A stretch of 64,000 bases of DNA from an uncultured Spirochaetia bacterium (GCA_964565765.1 CAZMGF010000007.1:3222-67221), one strand, 5' to 3'; positions 3,477 through 58,257 are shown, counted from the first letter of the stretch. Numbers and translations: made by a program. The notes: generated from the letters alone by a model not told the origin.

Positions 3477-3603
3477 TTAAACACGATAAAATTTAATCTT
3501 TGTTTTATCAATACCGATAATAATATGAATAATAAAAACGATATCAGGCGGTTTTCGCTTTTAGATTATTCATTTGCGTCGCCCGCCGGATCAAGGAGTA
3601 TTC

Positions 3604-10626: not shown

Positions 10627-11631
10627 TTAAAAGTATATTGTCAGCCCGAACCTGTTGTTGGACTGGTTTATCTGGCTCCCGAAATACTGCTGGTAGGCGT
10701 AATCAACCGAAAAAGTTTCCAGGGCAACGCTGGCGCCGCAGGTAAAACCGGCCGAAGAATCCGGCGGCAGGTATAAAAATCCCGCCCTGATGGCGATTGA
10801 CTGTATCTGCGATGTTTTCCCGAAGGCGAAATTATACTCGCCGCCGCCGCAAAAATCTGATACTGCCGGCGCGCCTGTGCTGTCCTCGATTGTCTTAAGG
10901 TCAAAGCTTACGAGAAAATCCGGAGTTATCCCGTAATAAAGCCCCGCGTTGAGTTCATAAGGCACTGATTCCTTTGTGCCGGTGTTCCATGTTACCTGGG
11001 AAAAAATGTCCTTGCATACAATCCCGATCCTGAAGTTATCCTTGAAGGCCGCCATGGCCGCCAGATCCGCGGAAAATCCCGAGGCGCTGATCTGCTGTGT
11101 GCCCAGCGTGAGGTCGGAGCTGGCCCCCAGGTATTTTAAATTGACTCCCACGGATATCTTCGGAAAATTATATTTGGACATCCCCAGGTATTTTTCAATC
11201 TGCATGCCCCATGAAAGCAGGGCCGTATACTCCGCCCATTTGTTCGTTGCGTCTCCGGCAAAATCCGGGTCAATCTGCGCGTTAGTATACCTTAGTGACC
11301 CTCCGATGGCGCCGAATCCGCCCGTGTCTCCCTGCGCGTATGATATTAGCATATCAGAGAGCCCCTTAAAATCATTGTAAACCTGGGGTATATATGTGCC
11401 GCTTACCGATTTTTCCTTTCCCAGGAAAGCCATCCCTGCCGGGTTCCACCAGGAAGCGTTTGCGTCATCAGCAACAGCAGTAAACGCGCCGCCCATTCCG
11501 GCGGCCCTTGCCGATATTACGCTGTCGGTAAAGGACCCGCCGAGCAGGTTTGAGCTGTCGGCGTTTGACGCCGGCACAAAAGCCGCGGCAATGATAAAAG
11601 CAAGGAGCGGAAGTTTTGTTGTTTTTTTCAT
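10627..11631 (-). CDS. PorV/UPF0164-like outer-membrane beta-barrel
   Basis: Signal peptide; SARAAGMGGAFTAVADDANASWWNPAG plug motif; ends in GLTIYF (terminal Phe). Confidence 0.85.
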   Translation of the reverse strand: MKKTTKLPLLAFIIAAAFVPASNADSSNLLGGSFTDSVISARAAGMGGAFTAVADDANASWWNPAGMAFLGKEKSVSGTYIPQVYNDFKGLSDMLISYAQGDTGGFGAIGGSLRYTNAQIDPDFAGDATNKWAEYTALLSWGMQIEKYLGMSKYNFPKISVGVNLKYLGASSDLTLGTQQISASGFSADLAAMAAFKDNFRIGIVCKDIFSQVTWNTGTKESVPYELNAGLYYGITPDFLVSFDLKTIEDSTGAPAVSDFCGGGEYNFAFGKTSQIQSIAIRAGFLYLPPDSSAGFTCGASVALETFSVDYAYQQYFGSQINQSNNRFGLTIYF

Positions 11632-11632
11632 A

Positions 11633-14600
11633 TTATTTCACCACCGCAATCATCCTGGAGGCCGAACTTGTTCCCCCGCCGGTATTGGTGGTTACAATCT
11701 TCATCAGGTAAAGGCCGTTGCGCACATAGGCTCCGGCGCCGTTCTTTCCGTCCCAGCTTACATAGTACATTACGTTTGCCGGACTTGTCGGGTTTGCGTC
11801 GCTGCCTGTAAAGAGCGGGTGGTCGGCCGCGTCGCTGAAAACCAGGGTCCTGACAACGCTTCCGGATATGTTGTAGATGTAAACTTTGACATCCTTGATT
11901 GTGGTAATATCCGATGTGTAATAATATTTTGCCGGGCCCGCTGTCGGGTTGAATGCCTTTGTGTTAAGGAAGTGGAAAGCCGCAAGCTGGACCGACGGCG
12001 GCGCATACATCAGGGCGAAAGCGTTGCTTAAGGGTATTGCCGCCATCTGAACCTCATAGTAATTATCCGTTCCGTTGCTGACCGGTGCTGAAAGCCCGGA
12101 AACCTGCGACCACGACGCCCCGTTCCACATCCACAGAGTAAGGCTTAAAGGCGTCAGCCCCAGGCTTGTAAGCGTGGCCACATTTGCGGCGGAATAATGC
12201 ATCCTCAATGTTGTTGAACACTGGTTGGCGTTAAAACTCAGCGGCAGGACAAAAGGAGCCGCTGTAAAAGAGACGCAATTGCCCAGTATAACGTATGTAC
12301 CCGGCGTTGCGGGCGGCGACGGAATCAGCGCAGCCTCAAGGTCGGCAGCCGGTACAGCGGCGTTGTTACTGTCTGTGATTCCGCTTGTTCCGGCGACGTA
12401 GCTTGACAGCCTCAGGTATGTTGTTGTGTTTTCACCCGTGCCGGTGATGTCGACATAAGTAACCCCGGCTGTCGAAATGTTGAACTGATAAGAATATGCC
12501 CCCTGGAAGCCGTTCACGGTCGCGGCCGTCACATAGGCGGTATATTGCCCGTCTGAAATTGTGCTCGACGGTATAAAGGATAAAATATTCGTGCCTGCCG
12601 TGTGCGTCAGGGATCCGGCAATAACGCCTGCCGTGCCCGATACCATTATCCCTGAATTTGCCCAGTCCACTGCCGCGGTGCTTGACTGCAGCAGGGTGGC
12701 GTTCACAGTCGTTACCAGGAACCCCACCTGCGTTGAGGCGGACTGCTGCAGCATCTGGGTTGAGCCGGAAATTGACCCAACATTTACATTGCTTACAGTG
12801 GGTATTGACTGGTCCACAATGGTGAATGTAAATGTGACTGTCGGCCCTATATTATCGGACGCGTCCACAGGCGTAACCTGATAAGTGTAAACTCCGCCCA
12901 CGGTTATCGGTTTGTCGGGTATGTAATATATCTCCCATGTTTTTGTTCCGGGCGTGCCGCCGTTCCATGCCACGTGGCCGCCGACAGGGTTGCCGTACGG
13001 GTCATAAAGCGCGATTGTGGAAAGATTTGTCGGCCCGGCTCCCACGCCGTTGTCCTGCAGTGTGACTTTGATATAATTTGTTGAATTTATTACACCGGGA
13101 TTAAGGACCTGGTTATTTGACGGATAAGCCGAGGATGCCACTATTACAGGCGGCAGGTTGTCGGGCAGCGGCACTGTCACGTCCTGCGGCACAACAAAAG
13201 AGACGGTGGTCTGGTTTGATGTCAGCCCGTATCCTCTGTTATCGCCGATAAAACTGTCATTAAAATAACTCGGCTGGGCATGCAGCATTGCCTGGGTATA
13301 ATTTATCGTGTTTGTACCGCAAACCTCTGAAGCCGTGGCAGGTGTTCCCACCACATCTATCATTCTTCCCACAAGTATGGACCTGAATGAAACTATATAT
13401 GTGCCCGCTGAAATGGAAGTTGAATAATAAGTGTAGGAAGGTTGGGCCGTAAAAGTGCCGTTATTATTGTCAACAAAATTATTAACCGGCGCAAAGACTA
13501 TGTCCCAGTCGTTTGTCAAGATGCCGTCCGGGATGGTATATATATCGGCCGGTATTATGGAGCATGGATCCGTAGGCACCGGATTGTACGTTATCACGCC
13601 GCCGCCGTCAAGGAATCCGGAAAACGGCTTGAGATCGGCAAATTTATTGCCGTAGTTCGGGTTTGTGTAATAGTAATCTGTATCCGTCGTCGGAAAGCTG
13701 TCCCTGGGGGCCACAAATATTTCCGTACCGACGGAATTATAAAGCCTTAAATCAATGTAAATATAAGGATAATTGTGAAAGTCATGGGTTGCCCCTGTTT
13801 CACCGGCCGTATAATTAAACCCGAGGTTCGCAAGGTTGGCTTTGGAGGCGTTTATCATATTTACCCCCATATTAATTGTAACCACAGTCTCAGCCTCCGG
13901 GGTATGCGCAAACTGCGTATTTACAGCGGCCAGGGTGGCGTCAAGCTCCACTGTTGTTACTATTAAATTTGCCGAATATGGGACCCCGGTATTTCCGGCC
14001 ATGTCCGTATAATTAAATGTAAATGTGTAATTTCCGTCAACAACCTCATTGGCGTTATTATCAAGGCCGTCCCATAATATCGGATTGTTATAGCCGAAAT
14101 TTCCCGTGGCCGTCAGTGATTTTATCGTAACGGCCCCCTGTGTAATCGTCAGCGTAACCGTTGAATTTTCGCTCATGTAATAAAAAAACTGCGCCAGCCC
14201 CTTATTGGGATTATAAGGGTTTGGATTTACGTTAACAAGCTGGATTGTCGGCCTTATTCCGTCGATATTAATAGTTGTCGGCGCGGTGAAAGGGGCATTG
14301 CTTGCCGACGCCGTGCCGTCTATAAAGTTTCCCGTTATCTGGCCGTTCTGTATGTTGAACTGGTAATTTTCCCTTATAAGAAAAGCTGTGTTATAAATGC
14401 CGTTGCCGCCGTCGGTGAGCGGTATGCCGGAAATGGCAGTGCCTATGCTTACTGTCGCAGTGCCGCCCGACCCGGGAGTGCCGACGGCGCCGGATAAAAG
14501 TTGTATTATGGAATAATTTGATACAGCCGGCCCCGCAATGAGCATCGTGTTGTCAATTGTCAGCTGCTGAGGCGCGGTATAGCCCGCAGTGTCGAGCCAT

Positions 14601-14905
14601 GTATGCGTGCCGTCATAAATATATATGCCGCCGGGAAACACCGCCGGAAAAGTCGGGCTGCTGAAGGTTATATTATTCGCCGTTGACGAGCTTATTGAAA
14701 TGTCGTTGTATGTAGCCGTCGCGTTTATCACGGACATATTAAAATTTAAGGTGTCCCCGATTTTTGAAACTGTGGCGGCTGGAGAAGGCTGAACATAAAG
14801 TGAAGATATTACATAAGCGGCTTTCAATCCTGATGAAAAAATAACTGCGAATAAAATTACAAAAAAGCTTAAAACAAGGCTGCTGCTTTTTGAGGTTGTT
14901 CTCAA
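11633..14905 (-). CDS. Large secreted protein with internal and C-terminal FlgD-Ig/T9SS-like domains and Ig-like (Big/CopC-like) modules
   Basis: TTG start with GGAGG SD; signal peptide; internal NPNPYNP...WDGLDN...DGNYTF; terminal IYNISGSVVRTL...WDGKN...NGLYLM...MIAVVK. Confidence 0.85.
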   Translation of the reverse strand: MRTTSKSSSLVLSFFVILFAVIFSSGLKAAYVISSLYVQPSPAATVSKIGDTLNFNMSVINATATYNDISISSSTANNITFSSPTFPAVFPGGIYIYDGTHTWLDTAGYTAPQQLTIDNTMLIAGPAVSNYSIIQLLSGAVGTPGSGGTATVSIGTAISGIPLTDGGNGIYNTAFLIRENYQFNIQNGQITGNFIDGTASASNAPFTAPTTINIDGIRPTIQLVNVNPNPYNPNKGLAQFFYYMSENSTVTLTITQGAVTIKSLTATGNFGYNNPILWDGLDNNANEVVDGNYTFTFNYTDMAGNTGVPYSANLIVTTVELDATLAAVNTQFAHTPEAETVVTINMGVNMINASKANLANLGFNYTAGETGATHDFHNYPYIYIDLRLYNSVGTEIFVAPRDSFPTTDTDYYYTNPNYGNKFADLKPFSGFLDGGGVITYNPVPTDPCSIIPADIYTIPDGILTNDWDIVFAPVNNFVDNNNGTFTAQPSYTYYSTSISAGTYIVSFRSILVGRMIDVVGTPATASEVCGTNTINYTQAMLHAQPSYFNDSFIGDNRGYGLTSNQTTVSFVVPQDVTVPLPDNLPPVIVASSAYPSNNQVLNPGVINSTNYIKVTLQDNGVGAGPTNLSTIALYDPYGNPVGGHVAWNGGTPGTKTWEIYYIPDKPITVGGVYTYQVTPVDASDNIGPTVTFTFTIVDQSIPTVSNVNVGSISGSTQMLQQSASTQVGFLVTTVNATLLQSSTAAVDWANSGIMVSGTAGVIAGSLTHTAGTNILSFIPSSTISDGQYTAYVTAATVNGFQGAYSYQFNISTAGVTYVDITGTGENTTTYLRLSSYVAGTSGITDSNNAAVPAADLEAALIPSPPATPGTYVILGNCVSFTAAPFVLPLSFNANQCSTTLRMHYSAANVATLTSLGLTPLSLTLWMWNGASWSQVSGLSAPVSNGTDNYYEVQMAAIPLSNAFALMYAPPSVQLAAFHFLNTKAFNPTAGPAKYYYTSDITTIKDVKVYIYNISGSVVRTLVFSDAADHPLFTGSDANPTSPANVMYYVSWDGKNGAGAYVRNGLYLMKIVTTNTGGGTSSASRMIAVVK

Positions 14906-17838: not shown

Positions 17839-19848
17839 TCAGTTTGACACGGTAAAAGTTACCACAACCCCCTTTGACTGCAGGTAGGGGATATCTGTAT
17901 TTAACGCCTGGCTTCCGAGCGGATTGTTGTTGAGTATTACCTGCGCCCCTCCGGCCAGTCCGCCGGAGTTCACATTGGTTACCAGCGGTGATACGTCTGT
18001 TATCTGGTTGGTATTGACGTCAAGATAATTCAGCGACAGGAGCCCGGCAAGCGGCGTCAGGGAAGTTATTGAATTATTGTACAGCGAAAGTATTGTAAGA
18101 GCGGGGCACTGGTCGAGCCCGCTCAAATCCGCTATTCCCGATGAAAAAGCGTTTAATGTGGTCAGGCCGTAAAGGTCGGTATTGTATATTGTCCCGGCGG
18201 GTTTACCTATGGCCGTTCTTACGGCGGCGTTCAGGTTGGCGTCCGGAAAATCAACTTCATGAGGGGTGAATGTTGGGGTTATTGTAAAAGTGGGGGTCAC
18301 GCTCGGAGTCGCCGTAAAAGTTTCGGTCCTTGTCGGCGTGACAGTCTTTGTATCCGTCATTGTCCTGGTTGACGTAAAAGTCGGTGATTCTGTGCACGTT
18401 CCGGTCACTGTCTTTGTAAGCGTCACCGTAAATGTCTGGGTTATTGTCCTGGTTATACTCGCCGTAGGCGATACCGTCCGTGTTGAAGTAACCGTAACAG
18501 TCGGGCTTATTGTGAAAGTGCATGTAACTGTCTTTGACATGGTGCGGGTCGGGGTAATGGTATTTGAAGCCACGGATGTTTTTGTAACCGTCGGGCTGAC
18601 CGTAAAGGTTTTGCTGATTGTGGAAGTAAGCGTGATTGTGGCGGTTGCCGTATATGTCGGAGTGAAGGTAAAAGTCCGCGTTACCGTGGAAGTTGCCTGG
18701 CTCACCTGAAAAACAGGGCTCACGGCTATAGGATGAACATTTGACCCGTTATTGTCGGATTCTACTGCAAATGTATAACTGCCTGCGGCTGACGGCGCGT
18801 TAAACCCCGGGCCGCCTCCGGACATTGCCCCGTATGTAACAATTATTCTTCCCGTATCGTTGGGCACCGCTGAAGCCGACACGATTATTTCCATTGATTG
18901 CGTCGAAACCTGAGTCAGGGACCCGCCGCTTACCGAAACTGTAAAATAACCCGGGTCGCCCGGATTCAGGGAAGGCTGTGAAAAACCGCCCGGAACTATT
19001 ATCTCCAGCGTACCGCTGCCCCATAATGTCTGTGGTGTATATGTTATCACGGCCGTATTTCCGCCGAAGCCTGTTGACGCTATCTGCGGAGAAATTGCTG
19101 CGGAGCCAAGCGGCGCCACTATGTCAAGCGCAGGGCTGCTCGCTATGGGCGAGGTTGTGTCCCCGCTTTCTGTCATGCCCACGGTAAAAGTAAAGATACC
19201 CGCGTTGGCCGCGGCGGCCGCGCCTGGCCCGCCTCCGCTTTTATCGCCGTAATTGACGGTTATTGTGCCTGTCGCGGCCGTAAGATTTCTTACCTGGATT
19301 ATTATCTGCATTGCATTTACGGTAACAGAATAAAGGGTGCCGTTCGTTACTGAAACCGTAAAATATCCGGGATCTGCCGCGCTCAAGCTTGGCGCTGAAA
19401 ATCCCGCCGGGATTGTAACCGAGAGCGTACCGTAAAGCGGCGCCGCCGCCCATGTTATACTGCCGGCGTTGTAAACCAGCTGCCACGTAATACCCGTCGA
19501 ATTCATCACGGCCCATGACGGCGAAAGCGATGCGACGCCTTTGGGCACTACCGGAGTATATGTGGAAGTACATGTCACCGTCGGTGATATTGTTGGAGAA
19601 ACAAAAGGCGTCAATGTCGGTGTAACCGATATTGTGGGGCTGGCCGTCGGGCTTTGCGGCGTTAAAACCGCGGAAGCCGTAGGGGTCTTTGTGCGCGTCA
19701 TTGTTGTGAGCTGCGTCAGCGCCGGTGTTTTAGGAATATCTATTATGGGGCCGGTGGGCAGCATTTTTTTCGGGTTGCATGACTGCGCGCAGGAAAGCAT
19801 CAACAATGCCGCGATTAGCAGCCTTACCCGCGCTGTTTTGCGGTTCAT
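17839..19848 (-). CDS. Putative lipoprotein: duplicated beta-domains, Thr-rich stalks and a C-terminal internalin-like LRR
   Basis: Lipobox-like LLMLS-C/AQS-C; two ~135-aa repeats sharing DPGYFTVSV and SGGGPG; TxT stalk; FPDANL...LDVNTNQITDVSPL...LNNNPL. Confidence 0.8.
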   Translation of the reverse strand: MNRKTARVRLLIAALLMLSCAQSCNPKKMLPTGPIIDIPKTPALTQLTTMTRTKTPTASAVLTPQSPTASPTISVTPTLTPFVSPTISPTVTCTSTYTPVVPKGVASLSPSWAVMNSTGITWQLVYNAGSITWAAAPLYGTLSVTIPAGFSAPSLSAADPGYFTVSVTNGTLYSVTVNAMQIIIQVRNLTAATGTITVNYGDKSGGGPGAAAAANAGIFTFTVGMTESGDTTSPIASSPALDIVAPLGSAAISPQIASTGFGGNTAVITYTPQTLWGSGTLEIIVPGGFSQPSLNPGDPGYFTVSVSGGSLTQVSTQSMEIIVSASAVPNDTGRIIVTYGAMSGGGPGFNAPSAAGSYTFAVESDNNGSNVHPIAVSPVFQVSQATSTVTRTFTFTPTYTATATITLTSTISKTFTVSPTVTKTSVASNTITPTRTMSKTVTCTFTISPTVTVTSTRTVSPTASITRTITQTFTVTLTKTVTGTCTESPTFTSTRTMTDTKTVTPTRTETFTATPSVTPTFTITPTFTPHEVDFPDANLNAAVRTAIGKPAGTIYNTDLYGLTTLNAFSSGIADLSGLDQCPALTILSLYNNSITSLTPLAGLLSLNYLDVNTNQITDVSPLVTNVNSGGLAGGAQVILNNNPLGSQALNTDIPYLQSKGVVVTFTVSN

Positions 19849-21101
19849 CTTAATGTATCCAGGAATTTTTTCAGTTCATCATCACCGGGGTTTAATTCCA
19901 GGGACTTGCTGTAATACTTCACGGCTTCCTCCGTGTTTTGCATATAATAAAAACAGTTGCCGAGTTTTTTAAATATAAGCGGTCCGGGGCTTAAAGCCGC
20001 AGCGTTTTTATACAGCGATGCCGCAGATGCGTAGTCGCCCTTTATAAACTCCGCATCTCCCTCCCCTGAAAAATCTTCTGCGGCAGCCGCCGTGGCGGTT
20101 ACAACCGGAGTTGCTTTAACAGCCGGTTTAACTTCCGGCGCTGCAACAGTTGTGGCAGTGTCCGTCGCAGTCGCAGTGGCTGCTGAAATAATTACCGCCG
20201 CTGCGGTTGCCGTGGCTATTTCAACCGTGGCTGCTGCTGTTACCGCAGTAAAAGTTGCGGTTGCATCGCTTGTAGCCGTCATTGCCGCGGTTGGCAAAGG
20301 TGTAACACCGCTTTCCTTAACAACCGCCGGGGCGTACTGCTGATTTGCTTTATTGCCGTCAAAGCTGTAATATCCCCCGAGCTGGGCATAAAACCCGGAG
20401 AAATCAGAATTAAAATTTGTCATTGTGCCGTTTATGTTTTCATCGGTTGACCTGAAAGAAGCCTGCCTTGAACCGGAAGCCGCCCTGAATCCAAAATTTA
20501 CAAATAGCCCAGTGTCCTTCTCAATAGAATATTCAAGCCCGGCTTCCGCGGACGCGCCTGGTATTACCCCGTCGATATCCTCAATGGTCGCCTTTTCAAG
20601 GTTCCCGGAGCTGTCATAGGTTTCTTCTTCGATGTAATTATTCACAGCGATAAACATCCCGCACCTTATCCCTCCGAAACATTTAAGTTCCCCTGATAGC
20701 GTAAAATATTTCCTGGCGCACAATTCAAGGCCGTAATAACTGAAAAAAACGTCCCTTTTTTCCATAGCGCTTCCGTCATGGTAATAAACCGCCCCGCCTG
20801 TTCCGGCGCGCATATATGAAACGCACAACCCGGCCCCTGCCGCGCCGTATGCCGGAGTGTCAAAAAGCGCAATCGCGCCCAGTGAAAAAATTGCTGAATA
20901 ATCCACGCCCGTAAGCGAAGCCTTGTACCCGGATGCCGTAAACGCTCCGCCCTGTCCCGGCAGAATATTGTTATATCCGGAAAATCCCCCGGTTCCAGCG
21001 CCTAAAGAAGGCTCAAAAACCAGCCCACAATAATTAATGTCAAAACCAAATGCCGCAACCCCCGAAGAGATAATTATCATAGTTAAAAAAAATCTCTTCA
21101 T
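19845..21101 (-). CDS. Outer-membrane beta-barrel with an Ala/Thr/Val linker and a C-terminal TPR
   Basis: Signal peptide; barrel ends YAQLGGYYSF; low-complexity linker; TPR KKLGNCFYYMQNTEEAVKYYSKSLELNP; 4-bp overlap with the lipoprotein gene. Confidence 0.75.
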   Translation of the reverse strand: MKRFFLTMIIISSGVAAFGFDINYCGLVFEPSLGAGTGGFSGYNNILPGQGGAFTASGYKASLTGVDYSAIFSLGAIALFDTPAYGAAGAGLCVSYMRAGTGGAVYYHDGSAMEKRDVFFSYYGLELCARKYFTLSGELKCFGGIRCGMFIAVNNYIEEETYDSSGNLEKATIEDIDGVIPGASAEAGLEYSIEKDTGLFVNFGFRAASGSRQASFRSTDENINGTMTNFNSDFSGFYAQLGGYYSFDGNKANQQYAPAVVKESGVTPLPTAAMTATSDATATFTAVTAAATVEIATATAAAVIISAATATATDTATTVAAPEVKPAVKATPVVTATAAAAEDFSGEGDAEFIKGDYASAASLYKNAAALSPGPLIFKKLGNCFYYMQNTEEAVKYYSKSLELNPGDDELKKFLDTLR

Positions 21102-21153
21102 TAAACTCCTCCATATTATATGGTCGGCAAATAGATAATTATATTAACAATAA

Positions 21154-21173
21154 ATAAAGCACAATCCGTGCCA
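21154..21173 (-). promoter_or_regulatory. Sigma54 (-24/-12) promoter upstream of the barrel-TPR/lipoprotein genes
   Basis: Minus strand TGGCACGGATTGTGCTTTAT (GG-N10-GC), nearly identical to three promoters inside the flagellar cluster. Confidence 0.75.
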
Positions 21174-21222
21174 ATATAATCCTTGTTTTTAAAGTGGATT
21201 GTCCGGGAATTTGAGAGGATAT

Positions 21223-21260
21223 TTGAAATGCATTGCACAAAATATGGAATGGGTTCCATA
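21223..21260. promoter_or_regulatory. Tandem enhancer-like palindromes (candidate bEBP UAS)
   Basis: TATGGAA-N4-TTCCATA at 21243-21260 and a degenerate copy TTGAAATGCATTGCAC at 21223-21238, 21 bp apart. Confidence 0.6.
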
Positions 21261-21305: not shown

Positions 21306-21740
21306 TTATACGCCTTCCTTAGTTTCGGATTTTTTTTCCGCTTCTTCAGCCGCATTTTGCGCAGGTACGGCAGGGGCGTCAGTTACGGCGGCTTCAATAT
21401 TTTCCACCGGTTTATCCGGTTGGGGCTCCGGTTTACCAACGGTGCCGGCAAGCTCCTGCCTTATCAACGCTATAATTTCATCCTTGAGCTCCCGGGAAAG
21501 TTTGGGCGCCCCGGAATCCGTCTTATCGCTTTTATCTTCAGCAGCGCCGTTTTGGCCCGGCTGCTCAAGGCACGTTGATATTTTGTATACAAGGGTTGCA
21601 AGTTCCCTGTACTTGGTGTCACCGAGGATATCGATCAAATTGGCAATTACAACCGCATATGGCTCAACTATCGAGCCGCTGTAGCCGCTGTCATTGGCGA
21701 ATTTTTCGACTGCCTCTCGTATATCGGCTTTTAAGTCCAC
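21306..21740 (-). CDS. Orphan acidic protein, probably sigma28-dependent
   Basis: GTG at 21740 follows an SD (GGAGGG). The track's ATG at 21791 lies only 2 nt past the predicted -10 element. Helical N-terminus, Pro/Ala/Glu-rich disordered tail. Confidence 0.65.
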   Translation of the reverse strand: MDLKADIREAVEKFANDSGYSGSIVEPYAVVIANLIDILGDTKYRELATLVYKISTCLEQPGQNGAAEDKSDKTDSGAPKLSRELKDEIIALIRQELAGTVGKPEPQPDKPVENIEAAVTDAPAVPAQNAAEEAEKKSETKEGV

Positions 21741-21793
21741 AATACCCTCCCTCTTTATTTTCAATCGCATCAAAAAGAACTCTTCTTTCATTA

Positions 21794-21834: not shown

Positions 21835-22209
21835 CTAAATTTCACCCGTAATCTTTTTGATAAGAGCGGCATGGTCGGCGTCAATTAACATGAAATTTAC
21901 CCCTATCCTGAACACATCAATAACTTTCTCATCCTTTCTGCACCATTCAACACGTCCGAATGTGGTGAGCGGAACTTCCTCTTCCGGCAGATAAACATCC
22001 ATTTTTATCACCTGGCCGGGGCGCATCTCCTCATCGGCGACCATCTGGATCCCGGAAAGGCTTATATCAATGGACGCCCCGGATTTTTCAATCTTCAGTT
22101 TTTCCGGATCGCCGCCATAATCAAGTATCTCCGCGTATTTATACAATACTTTCGCGGAAATAGCCGCCCTTCTGTGTTTTCTGCCTTCTCTGCCGCCGTA
22201 GTTTTCCAT
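21835..22209 (-). CDS. Single-domain PilZ protein (putative c-di-GMP receptor)
   Basis: RKHRR (RxxxR) and DISLSG (DxSxxG) motifs; GRVEW...FRIGVNF. Confidence 0.9.
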   Translation of the reverse strand: MENYGGREGRKHRRAAISAKVLYKYAEILDYGGDPEKLKIEKSGASIDISLSGIQMVADEEMRPGQVIKMDVYLPEEEVPLTTFGRVEWCRKDEKVIDVFRIGVNFMLIDADHAALIKKITGEI

Positions 22210-30527: not shown

Positions 30528-31673
30528 TTATTTTACAATCACTTTTCCCTTTATTGCCCCTGCGACTTTCATGTCTGTAATAATTGAAATAATATCATCA
30601 GCCGATACCCCCATGGTATTAAGGTTCTTTACAACATCCGCAAGGGTGGCGCCTTTTTTTAGTTCCGCAAAATTGGCCCTGTCCTGGTCCACTGTCATAC
30701 TTGAATTTATTGCCTGAATTGTCGAGCCCGGCGAAAACGGGTTAGGCTGCGAAATTACATTCTTTGATGAAATCGCCACGTGCAGGTTTCCATGGGAAAT
30801 GGCCACTTCGTCCACCGGAATCTGGGCCCCCATTATTACGGTGCCGGTCCTTTCATCAAGCACTACCGAAGGTTCCCCCGGATCCTCTATCTGCATGGAC
30901 GAAACTTCCGCTATGAACGACGCTTTTTTGTTCATATAATCCCCGGGGATATTTACCATTATTTTCTTTCCGTCAGTTGTGCTCGCTGTGCCGCCGCCGA
31001 ATTTCGCGTTTATCCCTTTTATAATGGCCTCGGAAAGTTCAAAATCATTCCTGGCCGTAAATAACGCCACCGAACTGTCTGCGGTAAAATCCGCGTCTAT
31101 TTTTTTCTGGACAGTGGCGCCGCCCGCTATAAAACCCGATGTCGGCGCGTTCTTGCTCACGCTGTTGTTGTTGACCTCAAAATTATGCCCGCCGACCGCC
31201 ACCGAACCCTGGGCGACCGCGCACACATCGTTATTGCCGGCTTTTAACGGGGCCATAAGGAGCGTCCCTCCGTAAAGGCTCTTCGCGTTGCCTATTGAAG
31301 ATATGTGGATGTCTATTTTTTCGCCCTGCTCGCATGTGGGCGGCAGAACTGCCGTCACGATTACGGCCGCGCAATTAAGCGTCTCAATCTGGTCAAGCGG
31401 AACCCTTACCCCCAGCTTATCAAGCATATTAACGACTGATTCCACGGTGACAAGATCCTTACCCGTATCGCCCGTGCCGCTTAAGCCGACCACTATTCCG
31501 TATCCGATGAGGTCGTTGCTCCTCATGCCTGTCATTGATGTAAGGTCCTTAATTTTAGCCGGGGTCGCGGAAATAAAGGACGGCACAACGGCTATAATCA
31601 TAATTATGGCCGCAACAACCGCGCCGTAATGAAGCCTTCCGTCCGGATGTTTTTTCATATGAGCTCCCGCCAT
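30528..31673 (-). CDS. flgI: P-ring protein FlgI (start 31673 or 31658)
   Basis: KIKDL..GMRSNDLIGYGIVVGLSGTGD; AKSLYGGTLLMAPL; VVLDERTGTV. Confidence 0.95.
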   Translation of the reverse strand: MAGAHMKKHPDGRLHYGAVVAAIIMIIAVVPSFISATPAKIKDLTSMTGMRSNDLIGYGIVVGLSGTGDTGKDLVTVESVVNMLDKLGVRVPLDQIETLNCAAVIVTAVLPPTCEQGEKIDIHISSIGNAKSLYGGTLLMAPLKAGNNDVCAVAQGSVAVGGHNFEVNNNSVSKNAPTSGFIAGGATVQKKIDADFTADSSVALFTARNDFELSEAIIKGINAKFGGGTASTTDGKKIMVNIPGDYMNKKASFIAEVSSMQIEDPGEPSVVLDERTGTVIMGAQIPVDEVAISHGNLHVAISSKNVISQPNPFSPGSTIQAINSSMTVDQDRANFAELKKGATLADVVKNLNTMGVSADDIISIITDMKVAGAIKGKVIVK

Positions 31674-32254
31674 TAGAATATTCCCAGCCAGTCAAAAACC
31701 TGGCTCAAGAAACCCATTTTTGATTTGTTGCCCAGTACACCGTCGCCGGTATAATCGATTTTTGCGTTAACTATCTTTGTCGAAAGTATCGTGTTGTCGG
31801 CCTCGATATCCTTCGGATTAACCTCTCCCTCGACAGAAATCTTCTGCGTGTTTCCGTTCATCTGGAGGTTTTTCTGCCCCTTTAACACCAGGTATCCGTT
31901 CTGTTTTACCTCAACAACCTCCACGGTTATTTCTGTCTGAAGCACACCGCTCTGGGTTGCCGTGCCTTTGCCGGTGTTCTGGTTGTTATAGGTGAACTGT
32001 CCGCCGTACGCGGTTGTGTTACTGGCCGGCCCGGCCCCGGCTGTGAGCCCGAAATCCCTTGAAACCCCGGTCTCATTCGACTGCGCGGCAGTCGCGTTTT
32101 CATTTATCAGAATCCTTACGGTATCTCCGGCTTTGTAGGTTTTTGAATTGGTATACAGTGAATTGAGGTCTCCCGAAAGGTCTTCGGCGTAAATAAAAAA
32201 CGCGGCAAAAAGCAGGGCAATAACCGTAGCCAGAATTTTTTTCATTTTACTCAC
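31673..32254 (-). CDS. flgH: L-ring protein FlgH, non-lipoprotein type (no Cys)
   Basis: KAGDTVRILINE; VVEVKQNGYLVLKGQK; NPKDIEADNTILSTKIVNAKIDYTG. Confidence 0.92.
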   Translation of the reverse strand: MSKMKKILATVIALLFAAFFIYAEDLSGDLNSLYTNSKTYKAGDTVRILINENATAAQSNETGVSRDFGLTAGAGPASNTTAYGGQFTYNNQNTGKGTATQSGVLQTEITVEVVEVKQNGYLVLKGQKNLQMNGNTQKISVEGEVNPKDIEADNTILSTKIVNAKIDYTGDGVLGNKSKMGFLSQVFDWLGIF

Positions 32255-34442: not shown

Positions 34443-34462
34443 ATAAAGCACAAAGCGTGCCG
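34443..34462 (-). promoter_or_regulatory. Sigma54 promoter of flgFGAHI
   Basis: CGGCACGCTTTGTGCTTTAT (GG-N10-GC). Confidence 0.78.
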
Positions 34463-34513: not shown

Positions 34514-34550
34514 ACCTACACGCTTCCATAAAGTATGGAAATTTTCTTTT
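34514..34550. promoter_or_regulatory. Degenerate tandem enhancer (half-sites CTTCCAT and ATGGAAA)
   Basis: The half-sites fall at the same offsets (about 61 and 82 bp from -24) as the full sites at the flgB-operon promoter. Confidence 0.45.
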
Positions 34551-34554
34551 AAAT

Positions 34555-36981
34555 TCAGGCGCAGCTTGGCAGGTGTATCGTAAATATGGTGCCTTTGCCG
34601 GATGTAACAAAATCTATCTTGCCGCCCTGTAGTTCAATGGCCTTTTTCACATTGTACAACCCGAGTCCCGTTCCGGTTTTTTTGGAGGTGTTAAAAGGCT
34701 CGAATATTTTGTTCATTATTTCTTCCGGTATGCCGTGGCCCGTGTCTCCGATTTTTATAACAAGGTCCCCGGCTTCCTCTGATGCCGCGACCGTCATTTC
34801 CCCGCCGCCCTTCATTTCATCCATGGCGTTCATATAAAGGTTCAAAAGCACCCGTTCAAACCACATTTTATCAGCTTTTACCATGCCGGTTATTTTCAGG
34901 TCCTTTACTATCCTGACATTCTCGGATTTGGCCTTGTGCGCGATAAATTTAAGGGTGGCGCCTATCGACGCTTCCGGGTCAAATTCTTCAATGGTTATCT
35001 TCATCTGTTTGGCGAATTCCATCATTTGCTTCAATATGTGGTCTATATCTATTATCTTTCCCTCCAGATTTTCAAGTATATCGTCTTTTTCCTGAACGGT
35101 GGCGTTCCTTGAATTCTGCACCGCCCCGAGCATTATGGTAAGAGGATTTCTTATCTCATGCGCGACGGCCGCCGCGAATTTTCCCATTCCCGCCAGCTGT
35201 TCACTTATAATGAGCCGCTGCTCGGTCTTGCGCAGAGTCTCGGTGGTTTCTATAAGCTGCTCGTTTTGCTTCAATATCTGGTCAAAAAGGTATGAATTCT
35301 CTATTGATTTCGCCACATGTTCCATCAGCAGTGCAAGCATTTCCACATGAAGCGGATCCATATCCTGTTTTTCAACGCATACGTAACCTATAAGCTTATA
35401 ACGGAGTTTCAGCTGGAAAACCCGGGTGACGCCCGGAATGTTGAAAACCGCGAATTTTTCATTGTTAAGAAGGGCATCCGTTGAATCCTTTCCATAATTT
35501 TCAATTTCTTCCCTGTTGATGGTATTTTTCGAGTACCGCTCAATGCGTTCTTTTTCATATCCGGTGCAGTGTATCAGCTCGAGATTCTGGGATTTTTTAT
35601 TGAAAAGCAGGAGCCCGACTTTCTCCGAGCCCACAAACTGCGAGACTATTTCCACAAAAATGCCTATAAGCTTGGTGTATTCCATGGTTGAATTTATTAT
35701 CTGGGAAATATTGATAAGGCTCCTGATGAGTATGTTTTCCTTGTTGAGCCTGCCGACAAGCATCATGTTTTTATAAATAACGCTCACTATATTTACCACA
35801 AAATCAATTATTTCCATCTTGTTTTCAAAAGTGGCCTCAATACCCCTGGCGTTATAGAGCACAAGCACGCCCAGTTTTATTTCGGCTCCCTTCAGGGGGA
35901 TTATCAGCACATTGGAAACAAGGCCTTCCGGATCATCCATATATTTTTTAACGTCATCGCCGGTAAGAAATAAAGGCTGCTGGTGCATGGCTTTTTTGAC
36001 CTGCTGTATGTGTGTTTTCAATCCGGCATCTGAAAATTTTTCAGCCCCTTCCTGTTCCTCCATGCCGCTCCTGTAAATATTGCCGCCGTCAAAAATATAG
36101 ACGGCCCCGGCCTGGGCGTAAAAATAATTCCCCACCTCCAGAAGAAGCTTTTTAAAAAAATCCCTGCTCCCGGACGGCTCGTTAAGGGTGTGCTGAAAAA
36201 GTTTCTGGATATTGGCCAGCAGCCTTTCGCGCGTCCTGTCATTAACGACAAGTATGCGCCTCTGGTGCCCGTCTACTTCCATGCTGTTTATTTCAAGGTA
36301 CAGTTTTCCTTTGACCGGCGAAACAAACTGTGCGTTCACAGGAGAATCTGAATTTTTTATGTCGGTTTTAAAGACAGCCTCTGCATTCGCCCCTATTATC
36401 ATTTCCTGGCCCACAGAGAGCATATCGTATAGGTTGGAATTCGCCTCAATAATATTGAGCCCGCTGTCTGTAAGTATTACGGCGTTAGGCATCCCCTTCA
36501 AGACCTCGTCAAGCATAACTTTGCGGACATCCGCGGTGTCATGCGCCCGTGAGTAGCTTTCTTTAAGGGCCAAATTTGCCGTTTCCAGCTCGTCGGTAAG
36601 CATTTTTACCCTCAGCATGGCCTTTATCCTGGCGCGCAACTCTTCGGGTTCAAAAGGCTTGGTTATATAATCATCAACTTTTGAGTTTATAAAACTGTCA
36701 ATCTTGTCTTTCTGGAGATGCCTTGCAGTAACCATTATAATGGGTATTTTCCTGAGCCCGGGGTCTTCTTTGATCATCCTGGCAACTTCGCCCCCCCTTA
36801 AAAGAGGCAGCATTTCGTCAAGAAGTATAAGGTCGGGTTTAAAACTGTTTATTTTTGAAAGGGCTTCTTTGCCGTCATTGGCGGTTTCAACTTCATACTG
36901 CCCGGGCTCCATGCCCAGTATTATCTGGATAATCTTGACTATATCGGGCTCGTCGTCAACGACAAGTATTCTTTTTTGCAT
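34555..36981 (-). CDS. Soluble hybrid histidine kinase REC-PAS-GAF-GAF-HisKA-HATPase
   Basis: REC ILVVDDE..LLDEMLP..TKPF; H-box AHEIRNPL; N box LLNLYMNA; DTGHGI; GTGLGL; no TM segment. Confidence 0.9.
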   Translation of the reverse strand: MQKRILVVDDEPDIVKIIQIILGMEPGQYEVETANDGKEALSKINSFKPDLILLDEMLPLLRGGEVARMIKEDPGLRKIPIIMVTARHLQKDKIDSFINSKVDDYITKPFEPEELRARIKAMLRVKMLTDELETANLALKESYSRAHDTADVRKVMLDEVLKGMPNAVILTDSGLNIIEANSNLYDMLSVGQEMIIGANAEAVFKTDIKNSDSPVNAQFVSPVKGKLYLEINSMEVDGHQRRILVVNDRTRERLLANIQKLFQHTLNEPSGSRDFFKKLLLEVGNYFYAQAGAVYIFDGGNIYRSGMEEQEGAEKFSDAGLKTHIQQVKKAMHQQPLFLTGDDVKKYMDDPEGLVSNVLIIPLKGAEIKLGVLVLYNARGIEATFENKMEIIDFVVNIVSVIYKNMMLVGRLNKENILIRSLINISQIINSTMEYTKLIGIFVEIVSQFVGSEKVGLLLFNKKSQNLELIHCTGYEKERIERYSKNTINREEIENYGKDSTDALLNNEKFAVFNIPGVTRVFQLKLRYKLIGYVCVEKQDMDPLHVEMLALLMEHVAKSIENSYLFDQILKQNEQLIETTETLRKTEQRLIISEQLAGMGKFAAAVAHEIRNPLTIMLGAVQNSRNATVQEKDDILENLEGKIIDIDHILKQMMEFAKQMKITIEEFDPEASIGATLKFIAHKAKSENVRIVKDLKITGMVKADKMWFERVLLNLYMNAMDEMKGGGEMTVAASEEAGDLVIKIGDTGHGIPEEIMNKIFEPFNTSKKTGTGLGLYNVKKAIELQGGKIDFVTSGKGTIFTIHLPSCA

Positions 36982-37792: not shown

Positions 37793-37801
37793 TTTGGCAC
37801 C

Positions 37802-37981
37802 TCAGTTGCTGTTTTGTTTTCGTTCCAGTATTTTTCCAAGCACCGCCATAACCGCGAAAGTCGCGGCGTAAAAAACCGCGGACGCAGCCAGTGTGCCGGC
37901 CCAGTTTTTGTGAAAAATCACGCCCAGGAGCACGCAGGAGAAAAAAGCCGCTGGAGGCGCGAAGAAAAATATTATTTTCAT
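37802..37981 (-). CDS. 59-aa two-TM membrane protein (below the ORF-track cutoff)
   Basis: MKIIFFFAPPAAFFSCVLLGVIFHKNWAGTLAASAVFYAATFAVMAVLGKILERKQNSN; GGAG SD; fills the gap between the activator and fliA; its stop overlaps the fliA SD. Confidence 0.7.
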   Translation of the reverse strand: MKIIFFFAPPAAFFSCVLLGVIFHKNWAGTLAASAVFYAATFAVMAVLGKILERKQNSN

Positions 37982-37991
37982 CCGGCTTCTC

Positions 37992-39404
37992 CTAAAGCCC
38001 GTATTCTTTCATCTTGTTATAAAGCGTCTTATAATCCACTTTCAGCGCCTCCGAAACCTTTGTCTTGTTCCATTTAAATTTGTTAAGGGCCCTGACTATC
38101 ATTTCACGCTCTATCTGCTCCCTTGCCCTGCCGCAGGCGTCCTTTAGCGGCAGTATCTCCCCGGAGTCACTCCCGCCCGCCCCGCCTTCCATGCCCGGCT
38201 GGCCGTAATGTTCGCCGCCCGCCACCCTGTCAGTAAGGCTCTTTGGCAGGTTTGCTTTTGTAATATAAGTGTCGGCCATTATTATGGCGTGCTTTATTGT
38301 GTTTTCGAGTTCCCTCACGTTGCCCGGCCATGAATAATCCATAAAAATCTGTTTTACTTCATCATCAATTTCTTTCACATTTTTTTCAAATTTAAGGTTA
38401 TATTTCATTATGAACCTGCCAGCCAGGAGAAGCACATCGTCCCCCCTGCCCCGCAGCGGCGGCAGTTCAAGGTAATATTCATTTATCCTGTGGAAAAGGT
38501 CGTCCCTGAATTCCCCTTTTTTCACAGCTTCATTAAGGTCCACATTTGTCGCGGTAATAACGCGAATATCCAGGTCTATGGTCTTGCGCCCCCCGATTCT
38601 GACTATCTTGCGTTCCTGAAGGACCCTTAATAATTTTTTCTGCACATTAAGCGAAAGATTGCCTATTTCATCAAGAAACAGCGAGCCGCCGTTGGCAAGC
38701 TCGAACCTGCCTGTTTTCGCCTCTGTGGCTCCGGTAAACGACCCTTTTTCATGGCCGAAAAGTTCCGATTCGACGAGATTATCCGGCAGTGTGGCGCAGT
38801 CTATCGAAACAAAAAGCCCCTCTTTTCTCTGGCTGTTCCTGTGTATGGTCTTGGCGACCAGTTCCTTGCCGGTTCCGGATTCACCCAGCAAAAGCACGGA
38901 AACCTCATAACCGGCTATTTTCCTCGCAGTTTCCACAACTTTGGAAAAGCCCGGATGCCCGGTTATTATTTCTTCCTCGGAGTCTTCGCCTTTTATTTTT
39001 TTACGGAGAAGTTTAATTTCCGTTTCCAGTTCCCTTGTCTTAAGGGCATTCTGCACCGTTACCCTGAATTTTTCCTCATCAACGGGTTTTACAAGATAAT
39101 CATAGGCCCCGAGTTTTGTCGTTTCCACCGCAAAACTTACATTTTCATAGGCTGAAAGTATTATTACAGGTGCCTTGAACCCCCTCTCGTTCATCTGTTT
39201 CATAACATCCACACCCGACATACCCGGCATTGTAATATCAAGTATCACCATGTCAAAGGCTGTTTTTTCTATTTTAGAAAGGCAGGCTTCGCCGTTTGAC
39301 GCGCTTTCAAAATCGTAGCCGAATTTTTTTACCAGGCTGCTTATATACCAGACTATCTCAGGGTCGTCATCCACTATAAGTATCTTATGCGTTTTTGGAT
39401 CCAT
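37992..39404 (-). CDS. NtrC-family sigma54 enhancer-binding protein (REC-AAA+-Fis HTH), likely the flagellar activator
   Basis: REC with ILDITMP; GESGTGKE; ESELFGHEKGSFTGA; WPGNVREL; C-terminal HTH WNKTKVSEALKVDYKTLYNKM. Confidence 0.92.
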   Translation of the reverse strand: MDPKTHKILIVDDDPEIVWYISSLVKKFGYDFESASNGEACLSKIEKTAFDMVILDITMPGMSGVDVMKQMNERGFKAPVIILSAYENVSFAVETTKLGAYDYLVKPVDEEKFRVTVQNALKTRELETEIKLLRKKIKGEDSEEEIITGHPGFSKVVETARKIAGYEVSVLLLGESGTGKELVAKTIHRNSQRKEGLFVSIDCATLPDNLVESELFGHEKGSFTGATEAKTGRFELANGGSLFLDEIGNLSLNVQKKLLRVLQERKIVRIGGRKTIDLDIRVITATNVDLNEAVKKGEFRDDLFHRINEYYLELPPLRGRGDDVLLLAGRFIMKYNLKFEKNVKEIDDEVKQIFMDYSWPGNVRELENTIKHAIIMADTYITKANLPKSLTDRVAGGEHYGQPGMEGGAGGSDSGEILPLKDACGRAREQIEREMIVRALNKFKWNKTKVSEALKVDYKTLYNKMKEYGL

Positions 39405-39472
39405 TTTTCCTCCATGTATTTCCGTTTTTTTTGGATTCACGGGGCGCATTAATAATAATCATTTTCCCGCCA

Positions 39473-43715: not shown

Positions 43716-43735
43716 ATATTGCACAAAGTATGCCG
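43716..43735 (-). promoter_or_regulatory. Internal sigma54 promoter of fliQR-flhBA-activator-fliA
   Basis: CGGCATACTTTGTGCAATAT (GG-N10-GC) in a 255-bp AT-rich gap between fliP and fliQ. Confidence 0.7.
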
Positions 43736-43773: not shown

Positions 43774-43814
43774 ATGGAAACTTTTCCATGCTCAAATATG
43801 GAAACAATTCCATA
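43774..43814. promoter_or_regulatory. Tandem palindromic enhancer (candidate UAS)
   Basis: ATGGAAA-CT-TTTCCAT (43774-43789) and ATGGAAA-CA-ATTCCAT (43798-43813). Confidence 0.7.
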
Positions 43815-51659: not shown

Positions 51660-52127
51660 CTAGTTTAATCCCGCGCCCTGCGCCCTGAATTTAAAAACCG
51701 CGTACTCGTCCGATGCCTTTTGTTCATTCAGATTCTCAGCGTCTTCATGTACCTTTTCATCCCGTTCCCTTATTTTTTCATATGTAAGTGTTTCTTTTCC
51801 GGCTTCTGTCAGGTCCCTGTGCAATTCCTCGAGCTTTGCCTCAAGGGATCTTATCTCCTCTTTTTTTCTTTTTATAAATTCACCGATGCATACAAGATAT
51901 GTGTGGTAGGATTTTATTTCATTAAGATTCTGCGGCGTACGCCTTCCTTCGGAAACGGTTTTAAGCATCGTGTGCCGCATCAGCATCTCTTTTTCAACAG
52001 CTATGTTAAGTTTTATCTTTTCCACGCCGATCTGTGTATTCAGGGTGTCACACTGCTTTTTTATTTCCTTCTCCGTGAGTTCCTTATTTTTCAGAATCTT
52101 TTCAAACCTGTATTTAAAGCTGCTCAT
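51660..52127 (-). CDS. fliJ: Export ATPase stalk FliJ
   Basis: FKYRFEKILKNKELTE; coiled coil; EQKASDE; follows fliI. Confidence 0.85.
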   Translation of the reverse strand: MSSFKYRFEKILKNKELTEKEIKKQCDTLNTQIGVEKIKLNIAVEKEMLMRHTMLKTVSEGRRTPQNLNEIKSYHTYLVCIGEFIKRKKEEIRSLEAKLEELHRDLTEAGKETLTYEKIRERDEKVHEDAENLNEQKASDEYAVFKFRAQGAGLN

Positions 52128-58149: not shown

Positions 58150-58169
58150 ATAAAGCACATACCGTGCCG
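58150..58169 (-). promoter_or_regulatory. Sigma54 promoter of the basal-body operon
   Basis: CGGCACGGTATGTGCTTTAT (GG-N10-GC). Confidence 0.78.
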
Positions 58170-58220: not shown

Positions 58221-58257
58221 TTGGAAATGAATGCAACCTATATGCAAAAGTTTCCAA
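58221..58257. promoter_or_regulatory. Tandem enhancer-like sites (candidate UAS)
   Basis: TTGGAAA-TG-AATGCAA (58221-58236) and ATGCAAA-AG-TTTCCAA (58242-58257), 21 bp apart. Confidence 0.6.

Follow-up and report, generated by a model that had tools for sequence, protein, structure and literature searches.

An outer-membrane barrel-TPR protein and a stalked LRR lipoprotein encoded behind a flagellar-type sigma-54 promoter in an uncultured bacterium

Well-studied flagellar regulons hold lineage-specific accessories of the cell envelope, such as the H-ring of Vibrio and the disk of Campylobacter, which explain differences in motor performance and surface behaviour. Could two genes that resemble no known flagellar part be accessories of this kind? 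The question is raised by a 64,000-nucleotide stretch of metagenomic DNA (GCA_964565765.1, CAZMGF010000007.1:3222-67221), hereafter called the window, in which two overlapping genes lie on the minus strand next to a flagellar supercluster. Gene 1 (19845..21101, 418 amino acids) encodes a predicted outer-membrane barrel with tetratricopeptide repeats (TPR), and gene 2 (17839..19848, 669 amino acids) a lipoprotein with leucine-rich repeats (LRR). The original prediction, all coordinates of which proved correct, had placed this pair in the flagellar sigma-54 regulon and had suggested an undescribed envelope component built with the basal body, such as an outer-membrane collar, a sheath or an adhesin.

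We conclude that the pair most likely specifies a surface adhesin or contact device co-produced with the flagellum, together with an outer-membrane partner. The probability of this reading is put at about 0.55. A status of proven flagellar part is not supported. We first describe the control region and the activator that may act on it, then the two proteins, and finally the setting of the pair and its relationships with known systems.

Control region of the pair and its candidate activator

Gene 1 is preceded by a -24/-12 promoter of the sigma-54 type, TGGCACGGATTGTGCTTTAT (21154..21173, minus strand), in which the GG and GC elements are exactly 10 nt apart (GG-N10-GC spacing; TGGCACGGATTGTGCT at 21173-21158) and the -12 element reads GTGC, a form shared with the promoters of flgB and flgF. 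The promoter is intergenic, with 52 nt from its end to the ATG of gene 1 (21101) and a GGAGG ribosome-binding site before this ATG. It is correctly oriented and has an activator-type palindrome at -85, within the 60-150 nt upstream that are expected of activator sites, all site positions being counted from the first base of the promoter. This strong enhancer site, TATGGAACCCATTCCATA (21243..21260, minus strand), is an exact palindrome, the core of which (TGGAA-N4-TTCCA, 21245-21258) starts 85 nt before the promoter. A weak second site, TGCAATGCATTTCA (21224..21237, minus strand), with 2 mismatches, is located 21 bp downstream of the strong one, at -64. The interval between enhancer and promoter also holds an A/T-rich block, CTTTAAAAAC (21185..21194, minus strand), conserved in the close orthologues L003 and L004; a similar block, CCTTTAAATTAAC, occupies the equivalent place in the flgB-operon promoter, and DNA bending is a possible function. 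A candidate sigma-28 promoter resembling that of flgM (TTAA-N15-GCCGACCA), between the sigma-54 promoter and the ATG, was rejected; it is not conserved in L003 or L004.

Six upstream regions were compared (the window, L003, L004/L009, L010, L005, and L007), with barrel identities down to 32-35%. Their only invariant blocks are ATGGAA...TCCAT of the palindrome and GGCA...TGCT of the promoter, 84-87 nt apart. The other spacers have diverged, and of the weak second site the left half alone is loosely kept. Promoter and palindrome are retained beside RND efflux genes (L003), a chemotaxis cluster (L005) and arsenic/thioredoxin genes (L007). Because it is invariant despite these differing upstream neighbours, the promoter-palindrome element is taken to accompany the pair under selection. 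Phylogenetic footprinting across the six orthologous loci bears out the regulatory wiring that had been proposed. At a further locus, L008, no separate promoter precedes gene 1, the start of which overlaps the cheX stop. In L003 (1690-1830), additional sigma-54-like motifs, CGGCACGTTTATTGCA on the plus strand and CGGCACGAAAAATGCT on the minus strand, occur near TTCCATA direct repeats and precede a methyltransferase gene.

By count alone, the promoter motif is not above chance in the window (TGGCAC-N6-TGCT with 1 mismatch allowed, 6 occurrences vs. 3.25 expected). What makes it significant is its position and orientation, together with its extended identity and its conservation. Indeed, YGGCAY-N5-KTGCH has 5 matches in 64 kb, and four of the five are on the minus strand, intergenic and ahead of operons. 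The 19-mer GGCACGNNTTGTGCTTTAT, a pattern derived from these same sites, occurs 3 times with up to 3 mismatches, vs. 0.11 expected. As for the enhancer, exact TGGAA-N4-TTCCA is found 3 times in 64 kb, each time 53-85 nt upstream of one of these promoters; with at most 1 mismatch the matches number 9 vs. 2.5 expected, a count reached in 0 of 100 shuffles.

Promoters like that of the pair precede flagellar operons of the same strand: FlgN-like-flgB-flgC-fliE-fliF... (58150..58169, flgB itself being at 57332-57661), fliQ-fliR-flhB-flhA-activator (43716..43735) and flgF-flgG-flgA-flgH-flgI (34443..34462). Near-identity to all of them, with the same tandem enhancer at the same spacing, had been claimed. 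For the promoter this stands for the flgB operon and flgF (17/20 identical positions each), and for fliQ the identity is only 13/20. For the enhancer it stands for the flgB operon and, in register, for flgF. The flgB-operon sites (58243-58256 and 58222-58235) lie at -87 with 1 mismatch and at -66 with 2, which is the 21-bp tandem of the pair. flgF has no full palindrome and carries perfect inner half-sites, TTCCA at -78 (34536-34540) and TGGAA at -66 (34524-34528), in the flgB register with degenerate outer halves. The agreement is only approximate for fliQ, which has two perfect sites (43799-43812 and 43775-43788) at -77 and -53. Both fliQ sites and the flgF half-site arrangement are conserved in a relative, L012.

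Which protein may act at these sites? An NtrC-type response regulator with receiver, sigma-54 AAA+ and HTH_8 domains in Pfam is encoded at 37992..39449 (minus strand), within the fliQ-flhA operon, and would therefore activate its own synthesis. A hybrid histidine kinase of the flagellar cluster (34555..36981, minus strand), in which Pfam recognizes an N-terminal receiver, HisKA and HATPase and no transmembrane or sensor domain, is its likely partner. Metagenomes were scanned for ATGGAA-N4-TTCCAT followed, after a gap of 60-78 nt, by GGCAY-N6-TGC. In relatives of this organism, the matches listed comprise only the pair (L029, L045, L050, L077, L111, and L120) and fliQ (L012). Many matches come from other lineages, of different G+C content, where TATGGAA-N4-TTCCATA lies 74-77 nt upstream of a canonical TGGCAC-N5-TTGCT promoter. 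Each such unit comes directly after an NtrC-type activator gene, either slightly overlapping its stop codon or lying up to about 270 nt beyond it. The helix NK[ST][KR].[AS]..L.[VI]DYKTL.[TN]K[IVM][KR][ED]Y is present in 15 activators, namely the L012 orthologue of the window activator and 14 from other lineages, each of the latter being encoded directly upstream of a palindrome and promoter. The sole activator of the set that is not adjacent to the palindrome has GITRQTL, without the DYKTL signature. The helix-turn-helix (HTH) of the window activator, WNKTKVSEALKVDYKTLYNKMKEY, shares the NK[ST][KR]..L.[VI]DYKTL signature. This is comparative evidence, not proof, and it suggests that the DYKTL type of helix reads TGGAA-N4-TTCCA; by extension, the cluster activator may act at 21224-21260.

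In other phyla, the operons that follow DYKTL units (L015, L023, L024, L030, L031, L033, L039, L041, L060, L073, L082, L083, L091, L101, L112, L121, and L127) encode STAS-CheY-CheA, methyl-accepting chemotaxis proteins (MCP), CheB or CheY-like proteins. The DYKTL activator and its palindrome look like an undescribed activator-operator pairing linked to chemosensory systems. As far as we found, neither the recognition sequence nor the helix has an earlier description.

A different activator or signal could control this promoter, for instance as part of an envelope, biofilm or exopolysaccharide programme. The likeness of the promoters would then reflect a shared activator family, and the pair would encode a general surface protein functionally unrelated to motility. 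This explanation draws on the palindrome-promoter units of other phyla, which serve operons of a non-flagellar kind (STAS-CheY-CheA, MCP, response regulator plus kinase), and on the window activator itself, whose best NCBIfam scores, all below cut-off, are for AtoC, PrsR and NtrC types and not specifically for FlgR or FlbD. Moreover, control of the cell exterior is a broad theme of sigma-54 regulation (PMC3162934). However, the exact palindrome is restricted, within 64 kb, to flagellar operons and the pair, and the sole activator seen with a matching HTH is inside the flagellar cluster. In addition, the -85/-64 layout of the pair is almost identical to the -87/-66 layout of the flgB operon, and chemotaxis genes are recurrent neighbours of the pair in other lineages. 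We hold control by another activator to be unlikely. There is good support for placing the pair in the sigma-54 regulon of the basal-body operons, and we regard this membership as clearly probable. Transcription of the pair by sigma-54 would depend on the NtrC-type regulator of the flagellar cluster, bound to the strong and weak TGGAA-N4-TTCCA sites at -85/-64. Since the operons for the rod, MS ring, export apparatus, hook and L/P rings would be driven by the same arrangement, the module would be made in the regulatory window of the basal body.

Products of the two genes

The product of gene 1 begins with a signal peptide (residues 1-19), followed by an 8-stranded outer-membrane barrel (residues 20-248, nt 20358-21044, minus strand), an Ala/Thr-rich linker of about 90 residues (249-340) and two TPRs (residues ~341-418, nt 19848-20081, minus strand; Pfam TPR_1/TPR_2 at 377-407). 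It has no match to a Pfam or NCBIfam barrel family, and Pfam sees only the two C-terminal repeats. Word-indexed homology searches returned only 3-7 matches each; the family was reached through an exhaustive profile search of the N-terminal 250 residues against 1.84 billion sequences, with clustering at 50%. Among these sequences it has only 20 representatives, a tiny and unannotated family. Some members are bare barrels of 207-272 residues; others consist of barrel, low-complexity linker and TPR, the linker varying from ~30 to ~200 residues. The TPR is the best-conserved part (GDxEF...KKxGNCYYY...EA..YY.KSL.LNP.D..LK.FL). One homologue, P0006 (L007 6895), is publicly called without a signal peptide, and its true start lies about 50 nt upstream.

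The fold was modelled with AlphaFold2 on the barrel only, from 19 family sequences; a full-length model built on a 3-sequence alignment had a predicted local distance difference test (pLDDT) value of 42 and was unusable. The barrel model (mean pLDDT 89.8, predicted template modelling score 0.79) shows a signal helix and eight long antiparallel strands (23-37, 68-82, 86-106, 112-136, 139-162, 168-192, 197-218, and 227-248). Turns of 2-4 residues are found at 83-85, 137-138 and 193-196, and a loop of about 30 residues (38-67) holds short helices. The top Foldseek matches of the model are OmpW (1.5e-6), the OmpA transmembrane domain (2.4e-6), OprG, OmpT/Pla, NspA, Ail and OmpX, and a profile search of the PDB gave a marginal NspA match (E = 0.02). 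Structure prediction with Foldseek for the barrel, and Pfam for the repeats, agree with the earlier description of an outer-membrane barrel with a TPR.

In outer-membrane barrels, short turns usually face the periplasm. Because the short turns of the model are taken as periplasmic, the C-terminus with its linker and TPR would be periplasmic as well. The C-terminus matches TPR_1/TPR_2 and not the peptidoglycan-binding OmpA_C. On the basis of the model, gene 1 appears to follow the OmpA plan, with a peptide-binding TPR replacing the peptidoglycan-binding domain. An 8-stranded barrel is an anchor and not a channel, which argues against both a Slam-like exporter and a collar-forming pore.

The product of gene 2 starts with a signal peptide and a putative lipobox cysteine (residues 1-24). 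In the window the lipobox is non-canonical (LMLSC/AQSC). The cysteine at position 24 is invariant, and canonical lipoboxes are found in orthologues (LTLAAC in L129, VIGAC in L008), AFSSC being seen too. A conserved basic motif, CNPKKMLPT (CNPKKMLPTxP), follows the cysteine. Then come a first Thr-rich stalk of about 70 residues and two BslA-like immunoglobulin (Ig) domains of about 140 residues each (98-386, nt 18691-19557, minus strand). Another Thr-rich stalk, also of about 140 residues (387-529), leads to an internalin-type cap with LRRs (530-669, nt 17842-18261, minus strand). In a PDB sequence search with the C-terminal 140 residues, positions 5-102 of the query (residues ~534-631) align with residues 13-112 of InlA (E = 8e-36). 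The LRR region also matches Pfam LRR_4 (5e-13) and an internalin-like NEAT entry of NCBIfam. All parts, including the stalks, are kept in the L129 orthologue at 43% identity. The Joint Genome Institute (JGI) gene call starts 114 codons late, giving 555 instead of 669 residues; we retain the long form because its N-terminus is conserved. The internalin-like LRR tip of the original prediction is confirmed by the InlA alignment, and the invariant cysteine and the canonical lipoboxes of orthologues suggest that the protein is a lipoprotein. From its domain order, the protein looks like a fibrillar surface protein with a binding tip.

The association of a barrel-TPR gene with a lipoprotein gene recalls the neisserial Slam proteins. 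Slam is a 14-stranded DUF560 barrel with an N-terminal TPR. By analogy, the barrel-TPR protein could be an export or assembly factor for surface lipoproteins, with the LRR lipoprotein as its substrate, and flagellar co-regulation would be incidental. Indeed, in at least 8 loci the barrel-TPR gene is immediately upstream of the lipoprotein gene and translationally coupled to it, and a conserved motif follows the lipidated cysteine. However, the barrel has 8 strands, matches OmpA, OmpW and OmpX, offers no usable lumen and has no Pfam DUF560 match. A Slam-like translocon was rejected on strand number, and we consider a role in lipoprotein export very improbable.

The pair as a module and its genomic setting

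Genes 1 and 2 overlap by ATGA, the ATG of gene 2 lying over the stop codon of gene 1. The LRR gene comes immediately after the barrel-TPR gene in the window as well as in L003, L004, L005, L007, L008, L009, L010, and L129. The pair is kept down to 26% barrel identity, and the two genes overlap or sit 7-32 nt apart. We propose that they form one conserved, translationally coupled envelope module. Among distant members of the barrel family, P0010 and P0013 have no LRR neighbour, P0004 is on a 1.6-kb contig and the contig of P0024 is uninformative. The pair lies at the end of the flagellar cluster in the window, L004, L009 and L010. Motility-related neighbours are fliD-fliS-PilZ in the window lineage, a full chemotaxis cluster upstream in L005 and cheX in L008; two CheY-like regulators lie downstream in L007. 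There are no motility-related neighbours in L003 or L129. In L129 (1-1270, from genome GCA_964417645.1), the pair comes directly after the 3' end of a 23S rRNA gene, a 5S rRNA gene and a strong terminator.

Is the pair, then, a structural accessory of the flagellar motor or of its passage through the outer membrane, a lineage-specific analogue of the Vibrio H-ring (FlgO/FlgP/FlgT) or of the disk and scaffold of Campylobacter? In that case the L/P ring or the stator would be the docking site of the TPR, and the module might offset a missing lipid anchor of FlgH. The cysteine for such an anchor is indeed lacking, in line with the original prediction. FlgH (31673-32254, minus strand; signal peptide MKKILATVIALLFAAFFIYA/EDL) has no cysteine in its N-terminus (MKKILATVIALLFAAFFIYAEDLSG), so that the L ring is probably not lipidated here. 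Other observations are also in favour of a structural role. The promoter and enhancer are common to the pair and to early and middle basal-body operons, not to late sigma-28 genes, the flgM promoter of the window being sigma-28-like. The position of the pair at the end of the flagellar cluster in the window, L004, L009 and L010 is consistent with it. There is also a precedent in Vibrio, whose FlrC/sigma-54 class III genes include those for FlgO, which is outer-membrane-associated, and for the lipoprotein FlgP (PMC6504787).

However, a structural role meets several difficulties. In searches for flagellar families (Pfam E up to 0.01, NCBIfam E up to 0.001), the pair has only TPR and LRR matches and none to FlgO, FlgP, FlgT, PflA/B, MotX/Y or FlgQ, in agreement with the earlier statement that neither protein is a known flagellar part. 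All orthologues have Thr-rich stalks, of about 210 residues in total, and an internalin-type tip, which sets them apart from known ring or disk subunits, and a linker of such variable length is a poor fit to a fixed spacer. The pair is parted from flagellar genes in L003, L007, and L129. We consider a structural role rather unlikely. The collar and the sheath proposed at the outset are not supported. Conserved stalks, BslA-like Ig domains and an internalin tip make up the anatomy of a fibrillar adhesin, and the barrel is neither a pore nor a collar. A basal-body part is also at odds with a pair that keeps its promoter beside efflux or arsenic/thioredoxin genes in orthologues, and that in one distant case follows an rRNA operon with no sigma-54 site. 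The adhesin, which was among the same proposals, fits the stalks, Ig domains and tip best; it is favoured over a ring or disk subunit because the conserved stalks are hard to reconcile with either. Another idea is that the pair belongs to a previously unseen outer-membrane organelle coupled to the flagellum. The TPR would be docked on the stator, the P ring or an L ring without lipid, and the LRR lipoprotein would project beside the flagellar exit. We see this as improbable.

We thus return to the adhesin or contact device, which would be displayed on motile cells. Product 1 would sit as a barrel in the outer membrane with its C-terminus directed into the periplasm, where the linker of about 90 residues would bear the TPR as a peptide-binding module. 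Product 2 would be a lipid-anchored fibrillar protein of the cell surface, with the internalin-A-type LRR at its distal tip as an adhesin or ligand binder. The barrel-TPR protein would be its docking partner in the outer membrane, perhaps gripping the CNPKKMLPT segment beside the lipid anchor.

Several points weigh against this scheme. The 8-stranded barrel cannot itself export the partner lipoprotein, the surface exposure of which we infer from composition only. The Ig domains of the window score 18.3 bits with the BslA family of Pfam (PF17735), for a cut-off of 38.7; a homologue, P0026 (34% identity over 98% of the query), exceeds this cut-off with 44.5 bits. In L129, the most distant pair, no sigma-54 site is seen in the A/T-rich 150 nt before the gene, so that flagellar co-regulation does not extend to every copy of the module. 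The 64-kb window contains no rpoN gene. Other activators with the same HTH could be encoded elsewhere in the genome. Finally, the metagenome scan needed a perfect palindrome, and other members of the regulon could have escaped it.

The source of the window is read as an uncultured bog bacterium of the candidate phylum FCPU426, on a contig from a JGI metagenome. A profile scan of a genome collection (6-sequence alignment) gave matches in two genomes only, a bog metagenome-assembled genome named 'candidate division FCPU426' and another labelled uncultured Spirochaetia. A literature search on FCPU426 gave only surveys, with nothing on motility. The nearly complete flagellar supercluster occupies the minus strand between ~58.1 kb and 22.3 kb. 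Its order is FlgN-like, FlgB, FlgC, FliE, FliF, FliG, FliH-FliI fusion, FliJ, FliK, FlgD, FlgE, MotA, MotB, FliL, FliM, FliN, FliO, FliP, FliQ, FliR, FlhB, FlhA, the NtrC-type activator, FliA, the hybrid kinase, FlgF, FlgG, FlgA, FlgH, FlgI, FlgM, FlgN, FlgK, FlgL, FliW, CsrA, flagellin, FliD, DUF8042, and FliS. FliH and FliI form a single 641-residue open reading frame (52124-54049, minus strand), with the FliH domain at residues 78-199 and the ATPase at 224-632. A plus-strand sigma-54-like motif, TGGCACCTCAGTTGCT (37795-37810), lies antisense over the ribosome-binding site and start of fliA; it is kept in L012 as CGGCACCTCAATTGCT, and the overlap with the ribosome-binding site may be the sole cause of this conservation.

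Past fliS, a strong terminator (22298-22264) divides fliS from a PilZ gene, which is followed by a gene for a 161-residue protein, the barrel-TPR/LRR pair, a gene for a 228-residue protein and pepA. The terminator scan shows no strong terminator from the 161-residue gene to the pair promoter, nor after the LRR gene, and an Rfam scan over 14-24 kb found nothing. The stand-alone PilZ protein and the 161-residue protein, which has no known function, are encoded at 21306-21791 and 21835-22209 (both minus strand), between the fliS terminator and the sigma-54 promoter. The 161-residue gene accompanies the pair in L003 even without flagellar genes; its homologues in L003 and L004 have about 300 residues, and the window copy lacks the C-terminal half. 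The downstream 228-residue gene was rejected as part of the module, having its own TTGAAA-17-TATTAT promoter and being absent from L007 and L129.

A second protein of the window combines a barrel and a TPR, namely a PorV/PorQ-family barrel fused to TPR (NCBIfam PorV_fam, 100 bits). It is accompanied by a further PorV-like protein, by large proteins with FlgD_ig domains and by one that carries a C-terminal sorting domain of the type IX secretion kind; the set is encoded at 60909-62681, 62695-63525, 10627-11631, and 11633-14905 on the minus strand and at 3574-5952 on the plus strand. Its composition points to a type IX secretion-like system in this lineage.

Comparison with known systems

Accessory envelope genes in a flagellar sigma-54 regulon are already known. 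Within this known kind, the module and its barrel-linker-TPR architecture are new forms. The pair provides a candidate accessory module for a candidate phylum that has no cultured member and essentially no functional literature. For metagenomic sequence, the regulatory evidence is unusually clean, with footprints of both the sigma-54 promoter and the enhancer and with a plausible candidate for the cognate activator. The analysis also defines a small unannotated family, in which an 8-stranded barrel with a tethered TPR is paired with a stalked LRR lipoprotein. The comparison further yields a testable recognition rule for a widespread group of sigma-54 activators, linking the DYKTL helix to TGGAA-N4-TTCCA. 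If the pair is truly an adhesin made with the flagellum, the coupling of motility and attachment would be hard-wired at the promoter level. If it is structural, it would be a new kind of motor accessory, and if it is part of an organelle, FCPU426 bacteria would have an adhesin or contact sensor associated with the flagellum, a single activator directing its assembly along with that of the basal body.

Like the Vibrio H-ring proteins FlgO, FlgP and FlgT, the pair combines a protein associated with the outer membrane and a lipoprotein, neither of them a core part of the flagellum. The Vibrio genes share sigma-54 control, through a response-regulator activator, with the rod, ring and hook genes (PMC6504787), and the pair would do so here. 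In contrast, there is no similarity of sequence or domains; H-ring proteins are compact ring subunits, whereas a long-stalked LRR lipoprotein and an 8-stranded barrel with a tethered TPR are found here. With neisserial Slam, the pair shares a TPR-plus-barrel gene adjoining the gene of a lipoprotein that is probably surface-located. It differs in having 8 strands instead of 14, a C-terminal instead of an N-terminal TPR and no DUF560.

The gene 1 product resembles OmpA in its signal peptide, 8-stranded barrel, short turns on the predicted periplasmic side, flexible linker and periplasmic globular module, and its barrel ends C-terminally in the aromatic YYSF. Unlike in OmpA, the periplasmic module is a two-repeat TPR, and there is no Pfam OmpA or OMP_b-brl match. 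The C-terminal 140 residues of the gene 2 product align with the N-terminal cap and 22-residue LRRs of the Listeria internalins InlA, InlB and InlH. However, internalins have an N-terminal LRR and are anchored by LPXTG or GW modules, whereas here the LRR forms the C-terminal tip of a predicted diderm lipoprotein, with an N-terminal lipobox as its anchor. The gene 2 product has no internalin-type inter-repeat Ig domain and ends in 'VTFTVSN'.

Finally, like FlrC, FleR, FlgR and FlbD, the window activator is a receiver/AAA+/HTH_8 protein encoded in the flagellar cluster, within one of its own putative target operons, and tandem dyads lie ~60-90 nt upstream of the -24/-12 promoters of early and middle flagellar genes. 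It differs from FlgR and FlbD in scoring below the cut-offs of both NCBIfam models, and from the NtrC-family flagellar activators in general in belonging to a type that, in other phyla, adjoins Che-like operons.

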